A stretch of 64,000 nucleotides of DNA from Bacteroidota bacterium (lineage in GTDB: Bacteria; Bacteroidota; Bacteroidia; Bacteroidales; UBA12077), in NCBI GenBank assembly GCA_020444275.1, contig JAHLLG010000006.1, forward strand, positions 12,316-76,315, given 5' to 3'. The position numbers and the translations under genes were made by a program. The notes under the pieces are model-generated. The model saw nothing but the letters and a program-made list of their open reading frames with translations. It searched no databases and was not told the DNA's origin. Shown here piece after piece: positions 1 through 9,430 of the stretch; position 1 is the stretch's first letter, and every line of letters begins with the position of its first letter.

Positions 1-1137
1 CTACTAACTATCATCGGGGCTCGGCCACAAATTATTAAAGCTGCCGCTTTAAGTCGTGCCATAAAAAACAGCTATTCAGATCAGATACACGAGATCATTG
101 TACATACCGGGCAGCATTACGATGAAAATATGTCGGATGTGTTTTTTAAAGAGTTGGGTATTCCTCATCCCGATTACAATCTGAATATAGGATCAGGTAA
201 GCATGGCGAACAAACCGCAAAAATGATTGGTGGTATTGAAGAAATCCTGTTAAAAGAAACGCCCGATTTTATTATTTTATATGGTGATACAAACTCCACA
301 TTAGCAGGAGCAATAGCATCATCTAAAATCCACATTCCTATTGTACATATCGAAGCAGGATTAAGATCATTCAACAAAAAAATGCCCGAAGAAATTAACC
401 GAATAGTTTGTGACCATTGCTCAACGTATCTGTTTCCGCCAACACAAACGGGTTATCAGAATTTAAAAAACGAAGGGTTTACCAAAAACCAGCCTCCGTA
501 TTCGATCGATAAGCCTGCCATTCTAAATCTTGGCGATATCATGTATGATAACACCCTGCATTTCTCCAATGTGGCCGAAGAAAAGTCGGCAATCATACAA
601 AAGCATGATCTTCATGAAAAGGATTTTTTATTAGCTACCGTTCACCGCGATTATAATACAGATAGCGAAGAAAACTTACTGAACATCATTAAAGCATTAG
701 ATCATATAACCCGGGAAAACCAGATCGATTTGATTTTCCCTGTTCATCCCCGCACAAGAAAGAAGATTGAGGCTTTAGACAAACATCAAGAGATTTCCAG
801 CTTTTTAAACAATCCACGGATTCATCAGATTGATCCGGTTTCGTTTTTAGATATGATCTTACTGGAAAAATATGCCCGTTTAATACTAACCGATTCAGGC
901 GGAGTACAAAAGGAAGCGTATTTTTTTAATAAACCATGCATAATACTTCGCTCGGAAACCGAATGGGTAGAAGTTCTGGATACCGGCAAAGCGCTTATTG
1001 CATATGCTTCGTTCGATAAAATTGTACAGAGTTATGGTGATTTAATTAATCTTCCTCCAACAGAATTCCCCAAGATATTCGGAAAAGGAAATACTGCTGA
1101 GTTAATTTGTAAGGAGTTGTTAAAAAATAAACCTTAA
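1..1137 (+). CDS. wecB: UDP-N-acetylglucosamine 2-epimerase (non-hydrolysing), 5' end cut by window edge
   Basis: Frame 1 is open from base 1 (LLTIIGARPQIIKAAALSRA...) into the 130..1137 ORF. Family motifs present: HTGQHYD, GDTNSTLAG, HIEAGLRSFN, PEEINR, DSGGVQKEA. Confidence 0.9.
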   Translation, partial: LLTIIGARPQIIKAAALSRAIKNSYSDQIHEIIVHTGQHYDENMSDVFFKELGIPHPDYNLNIGSGKHGEQTAKMIGGIEEILLKETPDFIILYGDTNSTLAGAIASSKIHIPIVHIEAGLRSFNKKMPEEINRIVCDHCSTYLFPPTQTGYQNLKNEGFTKNQPPYSIDKPAILNLGDIMYDNTLHFSNVAEEKSAIIQKHDLHEKDFLLATVHRDYNTDSEENLLNIIKALDHITRENQIDLIFPVHPRTRKKIEALDKHQEISSFLNNPRIHQIDPVSFLDMILLEKYARLILTDSGGVQKEAYFFNKPCIILRSETEWVEVLDTGKALIAYASFDKIVQSYGDLINLPPTEFPKIFGKGNTAELICKELLKNKP

Positions 1138-1254
1138 TAAATACCATTTTAAAAAATAGTTATTGTGTAACGTTCCAAAACTCATACACCATAATCAATA
1201 TAACTATCTGACGGTTCAGCAATTCTACTTTCTTGCCTGCCAATTAATTATCGC

Positions 1255-1627
1255 CTGTGGACTGTCAACTATCGACTATGGACAATTAAACTATTCCTTC
1301 CCGCAACGTTCCAATGTCCTGCGGACGATTGGAAGTTTTCCGGTCCATCATCTGTGAACCGTGGACCATCGACTATGGACAATTAAACTCTTCCTTTCCT
1401 CAACATTCCAATATCCTGCGGATTATTGGAAGTTTTCCGGTCCATCATCTGTGGACTGTGGACCATCGACTATGGACAATTAAACTCTTCCTTTCCTCAA
1501 CATTCCAATATCCTGCGGATTATTGGAAGTTTTCCGGTCCATCATCTGTGGACTGTGGACCATCGACTATGGACAATTAAACTCTTCCTTTCCTCAACAT
1601 TCCAATATCTTCCGGATGATTGGACGT
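1255..1627. repeat. Tandem repeat, 97-bp unit, about 3.8 copies (each unit = 4-5 phased heptamers plus a ~65-bp core)
   Basis: Anchor atcgactatggacaattaaac recurs at 1271, 1368, 1465 and 1562 (period 97). Copies 1368-1464 and 1465-1561 are identical; copy 1 differs at about 10 positions. Confidence 0.95.
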
Positions 1628-1893
1628 TTGTATATAAAATTAAATACCTCAACAATTTAATCGTTGAACAATTCTACTTACTTCCTGCCCGCTCACCAGA
1701 TCAATAGGCATGATATCACAAGCAGAATATTATAAAAACAGGATATTTATCATCAAGGCACAGGAGTTCAGCTAATCAATAAAATAAAACCTTCTATCAA
1801 ATATTTTAAAAAATTAATGGAAAGTCATTGTCAGGATCTACTACTCGTATTATCTTCATAGCCATATACTCAAACATCTAAAACTTTTTCACC

Positions 1894-4017
1894 ATGAAAA
1901 GAAGTCTTTTTTCGATTATTTGCTTACTGTTCTTTCTGCAATTAACCGCAGGTAGCCAACAAACAAACATCGACAGTTTGCAAAAAATAATAAAATCCAC
2001 ACAAGATAGCACACACAAATTTAATGCTCTGCTTCAACTCTACAAATCGACAAAAAATGAGCATCCTCAACAGGCAGACGCTTATGCATCAGAAGCGCTA
2101 GCAATAGCCCGAAAAATGGGCGATAAACTAAAGGAATCACTGGTTATTAAAGAAACCAGTAAATTGTTGCTGGCCAACTATCAATTTGAACAGTTCGATT
2201 CTATTGTACATGCCATTATCCCGGTTTTTGAGGACCATAACGAAACCGAGCTGCTGGCTGACTGCTACAATAACCTGGGAACAAGTCAGTTTTACAGAGG
2301 GAACGTAGTAAAAGCAGAAGAATATTATCATCAGGCATTAGCTCTTTACGATCCCGATTCATGGCCCTGGGCATCTACCCGTCTAAATACGGTTTTTCTT
2401 ATGCAAACACAAGGCAGGTATTCAGAAGCGTTGCCCATATTATTGCAGCTGACCAAAAAATTTAAAGCACTGGAAGACGAATATAATTATACCCAGTGCC
2501 TGGTTACGTTAGCCTCTGTTTATGAAACCCAGGGTGATTTTGAAAAATCGAGGGAATATAACTTACAATACATTGAAAAATGTAAAGCTATAGGTTTTCA
2601 AGATGGCATAGCCGGGGGTTATCATAACCTGGCTAACCTGGCATCTAAACAGGAAAACCACCAGGAAGCACTAAAATATGCCCTTAAAGCCGTAGAAGGG
2701 TTCAAAAAACCGCAAATGGTATGGAACAAAGCATCATCCATGTTAACACTTGGTATTATCTACCATCAGTTAGGACAATTGGATAAAGCCTTGCAAACTA
2801 ACGAAGAAATTCTGACTATCTGCAAAGAAAAAGGAATAAACAGCTTTCTTTCGGAAATATACAATAATAACAGCAATATTTATCTGGAGAAGGGTGCTTA
2901 TCAAACGGCTTTCTCATGGGCAAAAAAATCCCTGCAGGAAGCAGAAAAAAACCGGGAAATAGACATGATCCGTGATGCCAGTTACAATCTATATGAGGCA
3001 AGTAAAGCATTAGGAAAAACAGATGACGCTCTGGCTTATCATGAATTGCATCATCAGTATAAAGACAGCCTGTTGCAAGAACAAAATAGCAAAGCCATCA
3101 GAGATTTGAAAAATAACTTTGAAATAACCATTAAAGAATATGAAAACCAGCAGTTAAAACAGGAAAATACGCTTAATGATTTGGAAATAAAGCAACAAAG
3201 AACAAAACTATGGGTAGTTGCCGTTATTCTTATCCTGGTAAGTGTTATCGTATTTGTTCTTATCTTGTTGAACAGGAAATTGCGTTCGAAAAACCGGGTA
3301 ATATCTGAACACCGTATTGAACTGGAAAAAAACAACCGGTTAAAGGATAATATGTTTTCTATTATTGCTCACGATCTGAGAGGACCTATGGGTGCAACAA
3401 AAGGCTTACTCGAATTTCTTGATATCGATAGTGCCAGAGAAGATCAAAAAGGCTATGAAGACGTTTTAGAAACAGTTAAAAAATCGGCCTCTTCTACTTA
3501 TGAATTACTTGAAAACTTGCTTAACTGGTCGCGACAGCAAAAGAACGAAATAACCTTTGAACCAAAATCAGCAAACCTTACCGAATTGGTAGATGAGATC
3601 ATGCAATTGAAACAGCCTGCAGCCAAAAGAAAAAACATTCATCTAAGTCATTCCCTGCAAAATGAATTTATTGTCAAATTCGATAAAAATATGATTCACC
3701 TGGTAATTCGCAACCTTATCGACAATGCAATCAAATTTACTCCCGAAGGAGGAAAGGTAGATATACTTGGAGAGATAAAAGAAGAAAAAGTTCAAATTGC
3801 TGTAGCTGATACCGGAGTTGGCATCAGTGAAGAAGCTAAAGTTAAAATATTCGATAAATACCAACTTTATAGCTCCAAAGGTACAAAAAATGAACATGGA
3901 TCAGGATTGGGACTTAAACTATGCCATGATTTTATTCAAAAACACTCCGGTTCTATTTATGTAGAAAGCAAAATTGGCGAAGGTAGCAGATTCATATTTA
4001 CAGTGCCACAAAATTAA
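1894..4017 (+). CDS. TPR-repeat sensor histidine kinase
   Basis: Signal peptide, ~400-aa TPR-like region, coiled coil and one TM (WVVAVILILVSVIVFVLILL). H-box FSIIAHDLRGP; ATPase boxes NLIDNAIKFT, DTGVGI, GSGLGL. Confidence 0.85.
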   Translation: MKRSLFSIICLLFFLQLTAGSQQTNIDSLQKIIKSTQDSTHKFNALLQLYKSTKNEHPQQADAYASEALAIARKMGDKLKESLVIKETSKLLLANYQFEQFDSIVHAIIPVFEDHNETELLADCYNNLGTSQFYRGNVVKAEEYYHQALALYDPDSWPWASTRLNTVFLMQTQGRYSEALPILLQLTKKFKALEDEYNYTQCLVTLASVYETQGDFEKSREYNLQYIEKCKAIGFQDGIAGGYHNLANLASKQENHQEALKYALKAVEGFKKPQMVWNKASSMLTLGIIYHQLGQLDKALQTNEEILTICKEKGINSFLSEIYNNNSNIYLEKGAYQTAFSWAKKSLQEAEKNREIDMIRDASYNLYEASKALGKTDDALAYHELHHQYKDSLLQEQNSKAIRDLKNNFEITIKEYENQQLKQENTLNDLEIKQQRTKLWVVAVILILVSVIVFVLILLNRKLRSKNRVISEHRIELEKNNRLKDNMFSIIAHDLRGPMGATKGLLEFLDIDSAREDQKGYEDVLETVKKSASSTYELLENLLNWSRQQKNEITFEPKSANLTELVDEIMQLKQPAAKRKNIHLSHSLQNEFIVKFDKNMIHLVIRNLIDNAIKFTPEGGKVDILGEIKEEKVQIAVADTGVGISEEAKVKIFDKYQLYSSKGTKNEHGSGLGLKLCHDFIQKHSGSIYVESKIGEGSRFIFTVPQN

Positions 4018-4067
4018 TCATCAGAAAACGATTATACTACGTTTTTACGAAATAAGCAGGAATAAAA

Positions 4068-4110
4068 AAGAATGAGCAGGTATTAAAAGCTGTTCATTCT
4101 TTTCCTTTTT
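4068..4110 (+). terminator. Rho-independent terminator candidate after the TPR kinase
   Basis: 12-bp stem aagaatgagcag (4068-4079) / ctgttcattctt (4090-4101) with one mismatch, followed by a T-rich tract. Confidence 0.6.
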
Positions 4111-4134
4111 CTATATGGCACAAAGATTCCAATC

Positions 4135-4533
4135 CCGACTATCCACTATGTAGTTAAAACTATTCCTTCTTGCAACGTTTCAAGCTTGCCTGCCGATTAG
4201 GCAGGGTCATGCGGACGCCTGCCTGTTCGACAGACAGGACTGGAATTTACTTCCTCCCTCCTAGTGCAGCTTAGTGTACAACAAGTCCCTGCCTGCCGGC
4301 TGGAAGGTAAGTGGTTACTGAACGCTGTAAACGATGATCTGTTGACTGTGAACCATGGACTATCGACTATTAAACTATTCCTTCCCGCAGCGTTCCTATG
4401 TCCTGCGGACGATTGGAAGTTTTCCGGTCCATCATCTATGAACCGTGGACTGTGGACCATGGACTATGGACCGCGGACCATGGACTGTGGACTATCGACT
4501 GTTGACTATGGACTGTAGACTATCAACTATGAT
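4135..4533. repeat. Two diverged copies of the 97-bp unit (first one interrupted by GC-rich hairpins) followed by 14 phased heptamers
   Basis: 4362-4440 matches the 1271-1367 unit (aaactattccttcccgca.cgttcc.atgtcctgcggacgattggaagttttccggtccatcatct). Heptamers CYRTNNA run in phase from 4436 to 4533. Confidence 0.85.
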
Positions 4534-4603
4534 CAAATGCAAAAATTTTTTGCCATTTATCCTGAAAAACCTACCTTTACTTAACCAATAACGATATTTG
4601 TAA

Positions 4604-4611
4604 TAAATTTG
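4604..4611 (+). promoter_or_regulatory. Bacteroidota-type -7 promoter box (TAnnTTTG)
   Basis: TAAATTTG lies 44 nt upstream of the ATG at 4656. Confidence 0.35.
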
Positions 4612-4655
4612 GAGGTACTATTTTACTAATTAACTATTTTACCAATACCCAATAA

Positions 4656-6194
4656 ATGACAAAGCGCTCTCTATTCTTTCACCTGCTATTTGATGTAATC
4701 ATCCTGCTCATTGCTTACAGTATGATCCTTTGGATAAAACCAGGTGATGCCGAGCCCTACGTAAGGAAATATGCCATTGGATTAGCCGTATTTTTGGTTA
4801 TCTGGATTATCATTTCCATTGCCTCGCAAAAATATACAGCACCTAAAAGAACCAGTTTAATCAATTCTGTTGTTTACCAGGTCGTTGTAAACACCTTTAT
4901 TGCCGGAATTATTGCTATTCTGATGTACCTGTTCCGGGCAGCAGACTATTCTCGTTTTATTGTTTTTGGCACCATTACCCTGACTACATTGTTTGAAATG
5001 GTTTTTGCTTTTAGCGAGTATTACATCTATAAGGCTAAAAGAAGCACCGACTCGTCGGAAGTATTCGAAAAATACAAGAAAATTGTTGGCCTGGATGATG
5101 AGTATCCTAAATCGGAAGTATTCCCTTTAGAATATACCGTTGATCCGGTGCCTGAAAATATTCGCGATACCATTATTGAGGAGTCGAATGTGGAAGTATT
5201 TAACTTTCTGTCGGAAAATATCGACCTCAATATTCCGAACTATTCGTTGCTTTCTACCACCACGCGGTTCAATGTGGAAAAGCTGCCGGCTAAAATGTAT
5301 TTAAAAATCGTTAATCTGAAACGAATTAATGATATCCGCTTTATTAACAAGTTTTTTGAAACGGTAAACCGCAAACTGGTCGATGGTGGCTTTTACATCG
5401 GATGTGTTGAAACCAAAGATCAGCGAAAAAAACGATTACTCAAAAAATATCCCCCGGTACTGAATCGCATCTACTATCTGTTCGACTTTATCATTAAACG
5501 TGTTTTTCCGAAGTTTAATCTTACCAAACATCTATATTTTTTCCTGACCCGTGGCGAAAACCGGGTAATATCCAAGGCCGAAACTTTTGGCCGGTTGTAC
5601 TCTTGCGGCTTTAAAGTAATTAACGAACAAGAAATTAGAGGTAATCTGTACTTTGTGGCTCGTAAAAATCGTGATCCGTTTTACGACATGGAGCCCACGT
5701 ATGGACCGCTGGTAAAGCTTAACCGGATAGGAAAGAACGGGAAAAATATCCAGGTATTTAAATTACGAACCATGCACCCTTATGCTGAGTACTTGCAGGA
5801 GTATGTATACGAAAAATCGAACCTGCAGGAAGGTGGTAAGTTTGCCGACGATTTTCGAATTACCACTGCCGGTAAACTATTCCGTAAATTCTGGATTGAT
5901 GAATTACCTATGCTCATCAACTTTTTACGTGGCGACCTGAAAATTGTGGGTGTTCGGCCGCTAAGTAAACATTATTATAGTTTATATAGTAAAGAGTTAC
6001 AGGAAAAGCGTATTCAAACCAAACCAGGCCTCATCCCTCCGTTTTATGTTGATATGCCTAAAACATTAGACGAAATTCAAGCCTCAGAACACAAATATCT
6101 CGATGCCTATTTTAAACATCCTTTTAGAACCGACTGGAAGTATTTTTGGAAAGCCGTGTGGAATATTGTTTTTAGAAAAGCGAGAAGTAGTTAA
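4656..6194 (+). CDS. Polyprenyl-phosphate sugar-phosphate transferase (bacterial sugar transferase family, WbaP-like) with N-terminal TM block and extra central domain
   Basis: C-terminal catalytic motifs are VFKLRTMH, WIDELPMLINFLRGDLKIVGVRPL and KPGLIPP. There are 4 hydrophobic helices in residues 1-125. Confidence 0.8.
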   Translation: MTKRSLFFHLLFDVIILLIAYSMILWIKPGDAEPYVRKYAIGLAVFLVIWIIISIASQKYTAPKRTSLINSVVYQVVVNTFIAGIIAILMYLFRAADYSRFIVFGTITLTTLFEMVFAFSEYYIYKAKRSTDSSEVFEKYKKIVGLDDEYPKSEVFPLEYTVDPVPENIRDTIIEESNVEVFNFLSENIDLNIPNYSLLSTTTRFNVEKLPAKMYLKIVNLKRINDIRFINKFFETVNRKLVDGGFYIGCVETKDQRKKRLLKKYPPVLNRIYYLFDFIIKRVFPKFNLTKHLYFFLTRGENRVISKAETFGRLYSCGFKVINEQEIRGNLYFVARKNRDPFYDMEPTYGPLVKLNRIGKNGKNIQVFKLRTMHPYAEYLQEYVYEKSNLQEGGKFADDFRITTAGKLFRKFWIDELPMLINFLRGDLKIVGVRPLSKHYYSLYSKELQEKRIQTKPGLIPPFYVDMPKTLDEIQASEHKYLDAYFKHPFRTDWKYFWKAVWNIVFRKARSS

Positions 6195-6201
6195 AATATT
6201 T

Positions 6202-6230
6202 GTCAACAGTTAACGGTCGATAGTCCACGG
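6202..6230 (-). repeat. Four phased heptamers in inverted orientation
   Basis: The reverse complement reads ccgtgga ctatcga ccgttaa ctgttga. It starts 8 nt after the stop of the sugar transferase. Confidence 0.8.
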
Positions 6231-6255
6231 TATATTAATTATAAAATACAATCAT

Positions 6256-6618
6256 ATGGCATTTAAATTTGAAAAATTGAACGTTTGGAAAAAAGCTCTT
6301 GATTTTGATAATGAAATTAATAATCTTGTAAAAGATTTTCCTAAAGAAGAACTATATATTTTAACATCACAAATGAAAAGAGCTGCTGATTCAATAGTCT
6401 TAAATATAGCCGAAGGTTCTACAGGACAATCAAATGCTGAATTTCACAAATTTTTAGGTTATGCTTTAAGATCAGCAATTGAAGTTGTTTCATGTTTATA
6501 TATTGCCAAAAACCGAAACTATATTAATCATATAACGTTTTCTAAACAGTATTCAACAGCAGAAGAAATTATTAAAATGATACAAGCATTGCGTAATTCT
6601 CTTAATGGAAAGAGATAA
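6256..6618 (+). CDS. Four-helix-bundle protein (23S rRNA intervening-sequence protein / Avd family)
   Basis: 120 aa. N-terminus FEKLNVWKKALDF...; also RAADSIVLNIAEG and LRSAIEVVSCLYIA, the typical pattern of this family. Confidence 0.8.
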   Translation: MAFKFEKLNVWKKALDFDNEINNLVKDFPKEELYILTSQMKRAADSIVLNIAEGSTGQSNAEFHKFLGYALRSAIEVVSCLYIAKNRNYINHITFSKQYSTAEEIIKMIQALRNSLNGKR

Positions 6619-6702
6619 CTATCAACTATCGACTATGGACTATCAACTATGGACTATGGACTGTGGACTATGGACTATAAACTATAAACTATGAACCATA
6701 AA
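6619..6702 (+). repeat. Twelve phased heptamers (CTATNNA) filling the whole 4HB-to-wzi spacer
   Basis: ctatcaa ctatcga ctatgga ctatcaa ctatgga ctatgga ctgtgga ctatgga ctataaa ctataaa ctatgaa ccataaa. The ATG at 6691 lies inside heptamer 11. Confidence 0.95.
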
Positions 6703-8316
6703 ATATTAATCATTAGTATATTACTTTCAATTTGCAGTTCTGTAAGCTCACAAGAAGTCTACTACCATACTTCAAATCAGGACATTTACGAATTCCTCGA
6801 TGAGTTTGCCAATATAGGTGTAATTGAACTTAACGCTACGGTTAAGCCCTATTCGAGGGTTTTCATTGCCGATAAGCTTCAAGAAATTCAGGAAAGCGAT
6901 TATTCTCTTAACAAAAGACAGCAAGCAGAGCTCGATTTCTATTTAAAAGATTTTAATAAAGAACTGCAACCAACCTATAACCGGAAGAATAAAAATTTCG
7001 ATAAACGATTTGATATTCTCTATTACAAAGATTCGTTGTTTACCTTCTCGGTAAATGCTATTCTGGGTGCTGAATATTTCATGAACGACAGCGGAAATTT
7101 TTACCACCGTTGGAATGGTGCCGAAGCATTTGCTTATATAGGTGATCATTGGGGATTTTATGCCAGCCTACGCGATAATCACGAGAGTGAGATTTTAACC
7201 CGCGAAGATTACCTTACCCCGCGTATGGGTGCTAATTATAAAAACAATGAAGGAGGAGGCGATTTTAGTGAAATGCGTGGTGGTTTAACCTACGCCTGGG
7301 ATTGGGGTAGTTTTGGAATTGTAAAAGATCATTTTGAGTGGGGAAACAACTACAACGGTGCGAATATCTTTTCAGGCAGAACACCTTCGTTTGCGCACAT
7401 CAAATTAAATTTAAAACCGGTCGATTGGTTTGAGTTTAACTGGGTTCATGGCTGGTTGGTTTCCGAAGTAATCGATAGTGCCTCCACCATGGTATTTACG
7501 AATGCATATGGTACCGATCGCAGAGAACAAATGTTCGATAAATACCTGGCCGCAAACCTGTTTACCTTTAAACCTTTTAAAAACTTTTATATCTCAGCAG
7601 GTAATTCGGTGATTTACAGTGCCGACGGACCACAGCTAGAATATCTGATTCCGGTAATGTTTTACAAATCGGTGGATCATACCTATAATGCTACTGACAA
7701 ATCGGGACGTAACGTGGGACAAAATTCACAGATGTTTTTCGATGTAAGCTCAAGAAACATTAAAAAAGTGCACCTTTCGGCCACCCTGTTTGTTGATGAA
7801 TTGAGCACCAGTCGATTTACCAACGATACTGTTTGGAACTTTTATAGCCTTAAAACCAGCATGCGGATTTCAGATCTTATACCCAATACGTTTATTACAG
7901 CCGAATATACCAAATCGATGCCACTAACCTATAAACACAATATACCTACTACAACTTTTGAGAGTAACGGGTATAACCTCGGACACTATTTAATGGATAA
8001 CTCGCAGGAAATTTATGTTTCGGCACTGGTAAAACCATTTCGAACGCTTTCGTTAAAATTGTCGTATCTGCATACACAAAAAGGAAAGGATTATGATGAA
8101 CTGGGCGGATCGCGACTGGGTAATCCGTATATGGATTCGGTTGAATGGGAAAATAAAACCATCGCTTTTCGTGCCAGTTATCAGGTAATTAACGACGGTT
8201 ACATCTTTCTGAATTATGTGCACAGCGATATTTCCGGTGATTTGGATAAGTACACAGCCCCTGTGTTCCACGGGAAACAAAGTACCATTTCGTTGGGGGC
8301 TAACTTTGGATTTTAG
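6691..8316 (+). CDS. Capsule assembly Wzi-like outer-membrane beta-barrel protein
   Basis: Signal peptide; N-terminal YEFLDEFANIGVIELNATVKPYSRVFIADKL resembles the Wzi helical lead. Aromatic-rich beta-strand pattern with a C-terminal F. Sits in a polysaccharide locus. Confidence 0.6.
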   Translation: MNHKILIISILLSICSSVSSQEVYYHTSNQDIYEFLDEFANIGVIELNATVKPYSRVFIADKLQEIQESDYSLNKRQQAELDFYLKDFNKELQPTYNRKNKNFDKRFDILYYKDSLFTFSVNAILGAEYFMNDSGNFYHRWNGAEAFAYIGDHWGFYASLRDNHESEILTREDYLTPRMGANYKNNEGGGDFSEMRGGLTYAWDWGSFGIVKDHFEWGNNYNGANIFSGRTPSFAHIKLNLKPVDWFEFNWVHGWLVSEVIDSASTMVFTNAYGTDRREQMFDKYLAANLFTFKPFKNFYISAGNSVIYSADGPQLEYLIPVMFYKSVDHTYNATDKSGRNVGQNSQMFFDVSSRNIKKVHLSATLFVDELSTSRFTNDTVWNFYSLKTSMRISDLIPNTFITAEYTKSMPLTYKHNIPTTTFESNGYNLGHYLMDNSQEIYVSALVKPFRTLSLKLSYLHTQKGKDYDELGGSRLGNPYMDSVEWENKTIAFRASYQVINDGYIFLNYVHSDISGDLDKYTAPVFHGKQSTISLGANFGF

Positions 8317-8331
8317 AACCAAACCAGCATT

Positions 8332-8355
8332 CAGTCAACGGTCAATAGTCCACAG
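8332..8355 (-). repeat. Three phased heptamers in inverted orientation
   Basis: The reverse complement reads ctgtgga ctattga ccgttga ctg. It starts 16 nt after the wzi-like stop. Confidence 0.75.
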
Positions 8356-8384
8356 TTTTTTTACTATTAATCACATACTCTACA

Positions 8385-8608
8385 CTATCGACTATCAACC
8401 GTGGACTATGGACTATCAACTATGGACTGTAGTCTATCGACTATAGACCATCAACCGTGGACCATGGACTATCGACTGTGGACTATAATCTATCAACTAT
8501 AGACTATTAACCGTGGACCATGGACTATCAACTGTGGACTATAATCTATCAACTATAGACTATTAACCGTGGACCATGGACTATCAACTGTGGACTATAA
8601 TCTATCAA
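8385..8608 (+). repeat. 32 in-phase heptamers with a 56-bp (8-heptamer) higher-order repeat
   Basis: 224 bp = 32 x 7 with no phase slip. The 56-bp unit ccgtggaccatggactatc.actgtggactataatctatcaactatagactattaa starts at 8455, 8511 and 8567 (the last copy is 42 bp). Confidence 0.95.
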
Positions 8609-9191
8609 CCCTCTCTTTCTCAAAAATCTCCTTAAGAAGTTTCTCCATCGTTTTTTCTTTTTCCTCTTCATTCAGTGAAGTAACCCGGGTAACATACATG
8701 TGATCGATCACCTGCATGCCACAAAACTCGAATACTCCCTTATCCTGTGTAGTTTTTAGTCCTTCATACACATTGGATAACCGTAATGATTTTTCATCCA
8801 TTCCTGCCGAGGTAATTAGGCGTACGCGTTTTTCGGTAAGCATTCCCTCCGGTCCCTTACCATTCATCCTAAATGCAAAACCATTGGTAAATACCCGGTC
8901 GATATACCCTTTCAAAATCGCCGGAAAAGCATCCCACCACAGTGGGTACAGTATCGTAATCTCATCAGCCCACTGGATATAATTTTGTTCTACTACCACA
9001 TCGGCCATAAACTGCCCTTCTTTATTAAATTTTAACTCCTGTGCTGATAATACCGGATTAAACTTTAAATCATACAAATCTCTGACTTTGACCTCATGGC
9101 CCTGTTCATAAAATCGGTCTACCAGTTCGCTTTTTAATTGTTGTGTAAAACTGTCTTTTTTCGGATGTGCTATTATGAGTAACTGATTCAT
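8595..9191 (-). CDS. NAD(P)H dehydrogenase (quinone), flavodoxin-like fold family
   Basis: MNQLLIIAHPKKDSFTQQL..., WW.AFPAILKGYIDRVFTNGFAF. The ORF extends to 9224, but the ATG at 9191 gives the family-typical N-terminus. Confidence 0.75.
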   Translation of the reverse strand: MNQLLIIAHPKKDSFTQQLKSELVDRFYEQGHEVKVRDLYDLKFNPVLSAQELKFNKEGQFMADVVVEQNYIQWADEITILYPLWWDAFPAILKGYIDRVFTNGFAFRMNGKGPEGMLTEKRVRLITSAGMDEKSLRLSNVYEGLKTTQDKGVFEFCGMQVIDHMYVTRVTSLNEEEKEKTMEKLLKEIFEKERVDRL

Positions 9192-9430
9192 CTTGTTTAT
9201 TTTTATCTTTATTTTTTTAAACAAATGTTATTCTGAATTGTTCAGAGCATATTATTTATAACGTTCATCTAATATTTTAACTGTTCATAAACATAATTTG
9301 CTAGTTCGTCGGAAAAGTTTTGGATGCTATTTGTTTCCGAGGTTCCTTTGTGTAACATTTTTAACAAAAAAATAATCTTCTGTTAATTATGGTGAACAAT
9401 AATTCATAGAGCTTTGTTTGAAATAAACAC

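Follow-up and report, generated by a model that had tools for sequence, protein, structure and literature searches.

A gene-less heptamer fold-back between two convergent genes of a Bacteroidota bacterium and its possible descent from a neighbouring four-helix-bundle cassette

How did a long, phased run of heptamers come to lie between the ends of two convergent genes, and does either gene depend on it? The question is raised by positions 8332-8607 of the window, the whole stretch of 64,000 nucleotides analysed here from a Bacteroidota bacterium (GCA_020444275.1, contig JAHLLG010000006.1, positions 12,316 to 76,315). A preliminary description had proposed that expansion or contraction of this array could change the C-terminus of the reductase on its right as well as the strength of a terminator.

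Structure of the element

The element is composed of a left arm, a loop and a right arm about nine times longer than the left (Table 1), and it starts 15 nt past the stop codon of the upstream convergent gene, a 541-aa ORF. When the right arm was laid out unit by unit, 32 of 32 heptamers fitted the pattern [A/T]-C-Y-R-T-N-N over 8384-8607 with no phase slip, as the preliminary description had it. Position 2 of the unit is C and position 5 is T in all 32 units, and the only changes seen at positions 3 and 4 are transitions. TRF recorded 4.0 copies of a period of 56 (8384-8609; 93% matches, 0% indels, score 382), and a shuffled 1.39-Mb contig, used as a chance control, held no array of at least five units. 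With its strict 7-nt period, head-to-tail order and lack of indels, 8384-8607 is a heptanucleotide array, and it is intergenic except for 13 nt that overlap the end of the reductase ORF. In the register starting at 8384, successive 56-bp blocks differ by 8, 3 and 0 bases, which places the most recent 56-bp duplication at the reductase end of the array; the 2.75 copies of the 56-bp unit reported earlier, with one mismatch and then none, are correct for 8454-8607.

Table 1. Positions of the element, its neighbours and related repeats (window coordinates unless a contig is named)
Feature	Position	Strand	Description
Left arm	8332..8356	+	~3.5 heptamers in inverted orientation (complement of ACTGTGG, ACTATTG, ACCGTTG, ACTG)
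Loop	8357..8383	+	27 nt: remainder of T7 run (8356-8362), then ACTATTA, ATCACAT, ACTCTAC
Right arm	8384..8607	+	32 directly repeated heptamers in phase (A-C-Y-R-T-N-R consensus), in four 56-bp (8-unit) blocks
Flavodoxin_2 / NAD(P)H oxidoreductase ORF	8595..9224	-	PF02525, 1.1e-46; 209 codons listed, from TTG
541-aa ORF	6691..8316	+	Upstream convergent partner; syntenic in nine congeners, 80-90% identity
Four-helix-bundle (4HB) cassette	6203..6706	+	One gene upstream of the element; PF05635/TIGR02436 gene at 6256-6618
97-bp tandem repeat	1255-1629	+	Heptamers and 65-nt hairpin core; same heptamer family
Hairpin core and array	4340-4531	+	Same heptamer family
Further family copies	Contig C4 11957-12228		Just upstream of the window

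The inverted block that had been noted upstream of the array was recovered at 8332-8356. This arm (8332-8356/8357) pairs with several registers of the array at 76-88% over 17-25 nt, including a perfect 13-nt inverted match of 8345-8357 with both 8530-8542 and 8586-8598, and the best ungapped complement score between arm and array was 13, against 6 in the reversed control. A spacer does separate the block from the array, but it consists of the T run and of three heptamers in phase with the array (8363-8383) rather than of unrelated sequence; the first of these heptamers is an intact family unit and the remaining two are decayed. No ORF was found in the 27-nt loop. Rfam 15 had no match, either at the gathering score across the entire window or at E<=1 across positions 1-9300.

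Predicted RNA folds close the inverted block on the array on both strands, so the fold-back of the transcript suggested in the preliminary description is structurally feasible. Compared with 100 shuffles, both strands fold better (plus strand, -79 kcal/mol, z -4.8; minus strand, -89.6 kcal/mol, z -3.4), the minus-strand fold being the more stable, and in one arm register among many, three C-A mismatches would be G-U in minus-strand RNA. The most probable effect of 8332-8607 would be to give each of the two convergent transcripts a long 3ʹ stem-loop, which might act as a REP/BIME-like barrier to exonucleases or, in the manner of the stem of rRNA intervening sequences, as a substrate of RNase III. 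A consensus scan of 8317-8594 for an intrinsic terminator, that is, a G+C-rich stem followed by a T run, gave none, and the T7 run sits after the left arm, within the loop; the proposed tie between the array and terminator strength therefore finds no footing in the spacer. The many sigma-70-like consensus matches on the minus strand of the array are by-products of the repeat, and we take them to be irrelevant to a Bacteroidota-type promoter.

REP/BIME sequences of enterobacteria are likewise imperfect palindromes at the 3ʹ ends of genes, often between convergent genes; they vary between strains and are thought to be 3ʹ mRNA stabilisers or selfish DNA. However, REPs lack heptamer periodicity, whereas the arms of the present element are tandem arrays.

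The convergent junction in this species and its congeners

The reductase ORF enters the array at the outer (right) edge and reaches its stop within 13-14 nt. It ends in ...ERVDRL*, to which the array gives D, R, L and the stop codon TAG (8595-8607), as had been described, but of the V codon only the third base. The Flavodoxin_2 domain match ends at residue 198 of 209 and the tail lies beyond it. In the orthologue alignment that had been recommended for judging conservation of the VDRL tail, the tails of the congeners diverge after ...K-V/I-F/Y-x-x-E, in sequence as well as in length. On the minus strand of the array, the three frames run into a stop at codons 0, 3 and 18, and therefore an ORF entering the array is shortened at once. 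Going by the sequence, an internal change in unit number would be unable to alter the reductase C-terminus, because the ORF meets the outer edge only and the last three 56-bp blocks are near-identical; the expected effect of expansion or contraction on this C-terminus must accordingly be given up.

The 541-aa ORF had no sequence match in Pfam, NCBIfam or PDB, and these databases lend no support to its earlier label as 'wzi-like'. Its start is signal-peptide-like and its C-terminal sequence, ...GANFGF, is an ending frequent in outer-membrane beta-barrels.

The 541-aa gene is kept in nine congeners (80-90% protein identity), and in seven of them the convergent reductase adjoins it. The heptamer array was absent in all seven congeners with an assembled junction, where the spacer ranges from zero (overlapping stop codons, G017) to about 600 bp and, where present, holds other small hairpin repeats or a GIY-YIG gene (by-eye resemblance). 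The array thus has no constant length among relatives, nor is the reductase tail conserved independently of it, and neither of the two findings named beforehand as speaking against the preliminary description was made. Presence in one species and absence from its close relatives at a syntenic junction is the pattern of rapid turnover. Arrays of at least six units of the A-C-Y-R-T (ACYRT) type occur in 3 of 37 genomes of the genus, and exact-protein look-ups with the reductase and the 541-aa protein found no other assembly of the same species on record. Among the genomes searched, the element at this junction is specific to this species. The flanking genes do not need the array, as the relatives live without it.

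The junction of the 541-aa gene and the reductase gene is an insertion hot spot across the genus. In the congener loci L004, L007, L008 and L009 it holds different MITE-like hairpin repeats, for example gtcattccc...gggaatc and tccgatcaagtcggagatgac, and the small gene that resembles the GIY-YIG family by eye.

In two congeners, the contig with the 541-aa gene ends within a few bases of positions that heptamer arrays occupy here, on the upstream side in one (G004:C128, 3110 bp) and on the downstream side in the other (G018:C279, 2128 bp), and unassembled repeats may lie at these ends. Such breaks, together with the identity of the last two full blocks and the single mismatch over the last 2.75 copies, would fit a copy number that is itself an assembly artefact, with identical 56-bp blocks collapsed or inflated. 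However, the array lies in the interior of a 245-kb contig of a 10-contig assembly, its phase is perfect and the diverged outer blocks serve as anchors, and we therefore consider an artefact very improbable. The existence of the element is independent of the exact copy number.

The same observations bear on a contingency (phase-variation) locus, in which the strength of a shared terminator, as well as the C-terminal end of the reductase, would vary with unit number. Heptanucleotide repeats of Haemophilus lie upstream of hmw1A, in the promoter/5ʹ region, and their unit number sets expression (PMC8262952). The present array shares with such phase-variable repeats a tandem 7-nt unit prone to slippage, highly so given its identical 56-bp copies; it overlaps the end of the reductase ORF, and no other strong structure lies between the two genes. 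Unlike the hmw1A repeats, it stands at the 3ʹ ends of two genes, where unit number alters neither a reading frame nor promoter spacing. The ORF reads only 13-14 nt into the outer edge, leaving the tail unaffected by internal change, the tail is outside the Flavodoxin_2 domain and unconserved, a hairpin-plus-U-tract terminator is absent, and G017 manages with zero spacer. We thus give next to no credence to a contingency locus. The overlap of reductase and array looks like a tolerated insertion accident rather than a device, because the junction array is absent in the congeners and the reductase tail is not conserved.

Heptamers and four-helix-bundle genes within the genome and beyond

In the 4.2-Mb genome (G+C content, 33.6%), A-C-Y-R-T-N-R arrays of at least five units occur in three places only, on contigs C4, C5 and C10, and a genome-wide dispersed repeat was consequently rejected. 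The main locus is contig C4 11957-20922 (window -359 to 8607), where at least five arrays lie in the intergenic gaps of a polysaccharide-type locus with genes for a UDP-GlcNAc 2-epimerase, a TPR histidine kinase, a sugar transferase, a four-helix-bundle protein and the 541-aa ORF. Every array of this locus is on the gene strand. Contigs C5 and C10 have minor copies of the heptamer family at one place each; those on C10 are antisense and lie amid the unrelated genes RmuC, PemK, def and YkuD.

This near confinement of the family to intergenic sites of a single locus, where it keeps to the gene strand, would suit a cis-regulatory array, on which a DNA- or RNA-binding repeat regulator coordinates the genes of the polysaccharide locus. 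The invariance of unit positions 2 and 5 and the restriction of positions 3 and 4 to transitions suggest constraint, and some sister arrays have 21-bp (two-turn) superperiods. On the other hand, the orthologous loci of the congeners lack the arrays, the C10 copies run antisense between unrelated genes, ACYRT units turn up in unrelated contexts and in mixed orientation across phyla, and the positional invariance is partly inherited via block duplication. On balance, a cis-regulatory array seems to us quite improbable.

Several other small repeats were observed alongside these arrays. A 65-nt core with an 11-bp hairpin (TTCCAATGTCC...GGACGATTGGAA) is set between heptamer runs at window positions 1255-1629 and 4373-4435, at L001 12095-12165, at contig C5 194-435 and also on C10. 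It is amplified as the 97-bp tandem repeat, in 3.9 copies, at 1255-1629, and its C5 version forms a 117-bp repeat with another left heptamer (CTACTTT); the core had no Rfam match. The C5 locus (positions 1-4500, L013) contains a NusG/UpxY-like gene and a Wza-like exporter gene, with two near-duplicate AbiEii toxin modules between and after them and hairpin-core copies in the gaps, and it runs off the contig end. Other heptamers also form short arrays in the genome, chiefly a TGAAATC/GATTTCA family with variants, which has arrays of 3-9 units in many intergenic regions, including C7:747190-747306, C9:321454-321543, C9:388198-388264 and C10:19514-21054; at C7:747258 it repeats the design of the element, with a loop of 31 nt between a short inverted block and the direct array. 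Finally, small GC-rich CCTGCC/GGCAGG hairpins are inserted in a diverged repeat unit at window positions 4189-4300, and in a congener (G038, L016 ~1270-1300) a 4HB gene that lies between sufB and sufC seems to be interrupted by one of them. They look like a separate, tiny mobile hairpin.

One gene upstream of the element lies a cassette with the same kind of arms around a gene. In the 4HB cassette, an inverted heptamer block occupies 6203-6232 and directly repeated units of the same family occupy 6617-6706, and its left arm (6208-6232) is identical to that of the element (8332-8356) at 22 of 25 positions. A 13-mer from the loop of 8332-8607 also matched the 4HB ORF (6521-6534) at 12 of 13 positions, a weak match (shuffle p ~0.04). 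The genome has six PF05635 genes in all, each with heptamer-like blocks on both sides and each with a different unit sequence. The ungapped complement scores of their flanks were 11, 10, 12, 14, 12, and 8, whereas in random windows a score of 10 marked the 95th percentile and 11 the 99th, so that the inverted flanks of five of the six genes were at or above the 95th percentile. The 4HB gene between sufB and sufC in a congener has the same flanking layout.

Inverted arms around a loop are also found in 23S rRNA intervening sequences with a PF05635 (S23p) ORF, where the element shares a stem that would suit RNase III. It differs from them in lying outside rRNA, in its strongly unequal arms (right arm ~9x left) and in its loop. 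When held against the ORF-bearing intervening sequences and 4HB cassettes, the element has the inverted arms but no PF05635 ORF between them. As its loop is 27 nt without an ORF, we file 8332-8607 as a gene-less relative of the hairpin-bounded 4HB cassette, not as a member.

Two congeners (G008 and G011) likewise have a 4HB gene, followed by a right arm of ACYRT type, at the same position ahead of the 541-aa gene. In G015 this position holds relic heptamers, and in four other species it holds neither the gene nor heptamers. Since the cassette is common to G008 and G011 and the junction array is not, the cassette is older than the 8332-8607 element.

Heptanucleotide repeats have been known since 1990 and, to our knowledge, have no accepted function; the heptanucleotides of Calothrix are probably the cyanobacterial STRR of Mazel et al. 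(1990). Arrays of TAACTGA with up to 43 units are present in Bacteroidetes and Cyanobacteria, and also in Beggiatoaceae, and are missing from close relatives (PMC4679880). Another study describes heptamers as over-represented among bacterial repeats and of unknown function, proposes slippage, and cites three tandemly repeated heptanucleotides in Calothrix PCC 7601 (PMC4692102). The present array shares with these heptanucleotide arrays (STRR, period-7 long SSR, TAACTGA) the 7-nt period, an intergenic position, mixed related variants, tens of units in Bacteroidetes and absence from the same region of relatives. It differs in its A-C-Y-R-T-N-R unit, a fold-back arm with fixed polarity, clustering at one locus and a 56-bp higher-order repeat.

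One genome per species was scanned for stretches of six to seven ACYRT units. At least 120 stretches were found, and those listed come from Bacteroidota, Cyanobacteria, Acidobacteriota, Gemmatimonadota, Verrucomicrobiota, Planctomycetota, Chloroflexota and others. Within the phylum of the window, 49 of 401 near-complete genomes (34 of 180 genera) carry ACYRT arrays. In this sample a reversed control pattern turned up about as often as ACYRT did, and therefore many unit families exist.

Polarity was counted, among the matches listed, in 109 arrays with both flanks, by searching for an inverted block within 150 nt in the ACYRT sense. The block was upstream of the array in 19 cases and downstream in 1, as against 5 and 1 in the controls, and the gap between block and array was mostly 10-112 nt in these listed fold-backs. 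By these counts, the block-loop-array design recurs in one fixed polarity in several phyla. Among the same listed matches, 13 of the 19 fold-backs begin at most 80 nt from the end of an ORF that has 100 codons or more and runs in the same orientation, and 40 of the 90 plain arrays end at most 80 nt from the stop of a convergent ORF, as the array does here. The orientation of arrays relative to their flanking genes is mixed across genomes (++ 32, -- 19, +- 16, -+ 6). A transcript-sense rule is thus unsupported, and the mixture speaks against a purely transcript-sense function.

PF05635 is widespread in the same phylum. It was found in 322 of the 401 near-complete genomes, often with at least 10 matches scored per genome and frequently with at least 11; in a control search, only Bacteroides thetaiotaomicron matched among 14 control genomes. 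Of the 49 genomes with arrays, 47 have the family, as do 275 of the 352 without (Fisher p = 0.0018, with related genomes not independent of one another). The association is modest and not decisive, because PF05635 is so common and kin are not independent. Around ACYRT arrays in other genomes, only four 4HB genes were found in the 120 listed loci (862 kb), one of them adjacent, and more than 95% of these loci had none. The notion that each ACYRT array is an arm of a 4HB cassette was therefore rejected as a general rule.

That most arrays elsewhere have no 4HB gene would be expected from a neutral, microsatellite-like expansion by slippage that is unrelated to the 4HB cassette, the inverted block being incidental. 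The over-representation of heptamers in bacteria, with the slippage proposed for it (PMC4692102), and the many unit families implied by the reversed control point the same way. However, the fixed polarity (19 vs 1 among the matches listed) and the recurrence of the block-loop-array design in several phyla are unexpected from slippage alone, the element and the neighbouring cassette have near-identical left arms, and in this genome the heptamers are clustered within 9 kb rather than scattered. We judge neutral expansion alone to be unlikely.

Origin of the element and its meaning

The explanation we favour, though with restrained confidence, is that 8332-8607 is a gene-less heptamer fold-back, a lineage-specific secondary copy of the 4HB cassette arms that has been expanded by slippage and forms a 3ʹ stem-loop for both transcripts. 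Under this explanation, the arms of the PF05635 cassette one gene upstream would have been copied without the gene; this descent is suggested by arm similarity within a low-complexity family. The array would then have grown by gain of whole units, via replication slippage or unequal exchange, the latest step being the duplication of a 56-bp block at the reductase end. The element would have landed at, or spread into, the convergent 3ʹ junction, where array sequence would have taken the place of the final three reductase codons and of the stop. This replacement could be tolerated because the tail is not conserved and the minus strand of the array has stops in all three frames.

A further and more tentative idea, which we hold to be distinctly doubtful, is that such fold-backs are the non-autonomous form of a mobile or self-copying hairpin cassette, that the 4HB (Avd/S23p-like) protein recognises or propagates the arms, and that the fixed polarity, with the inverted block 5ʹ of the ACYRT-sense array, reflects directional copying. 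If it were true, PF05635 proteins and the heptamer repeats of bacteria would both belong to a single system, each forming one half of it.

By itself the single locus matters little, as the reductase is not controlled by the array and relatives lack it. Heptanucleotide arrays are known as a class, and the present one is a further example, in which a gene-bearing cassette and a gene-less copy stand side by side. The value of the locus lies in this clean, datable pair, an older, shared 4HB cassette situated 1.7 kb from a younger copy present in this species only. With its gradient of block ages, it is a good site for studying how heptamer arrays originate and expand, and it is suited to asking whether the four-helix-bundle protein is involved in them.
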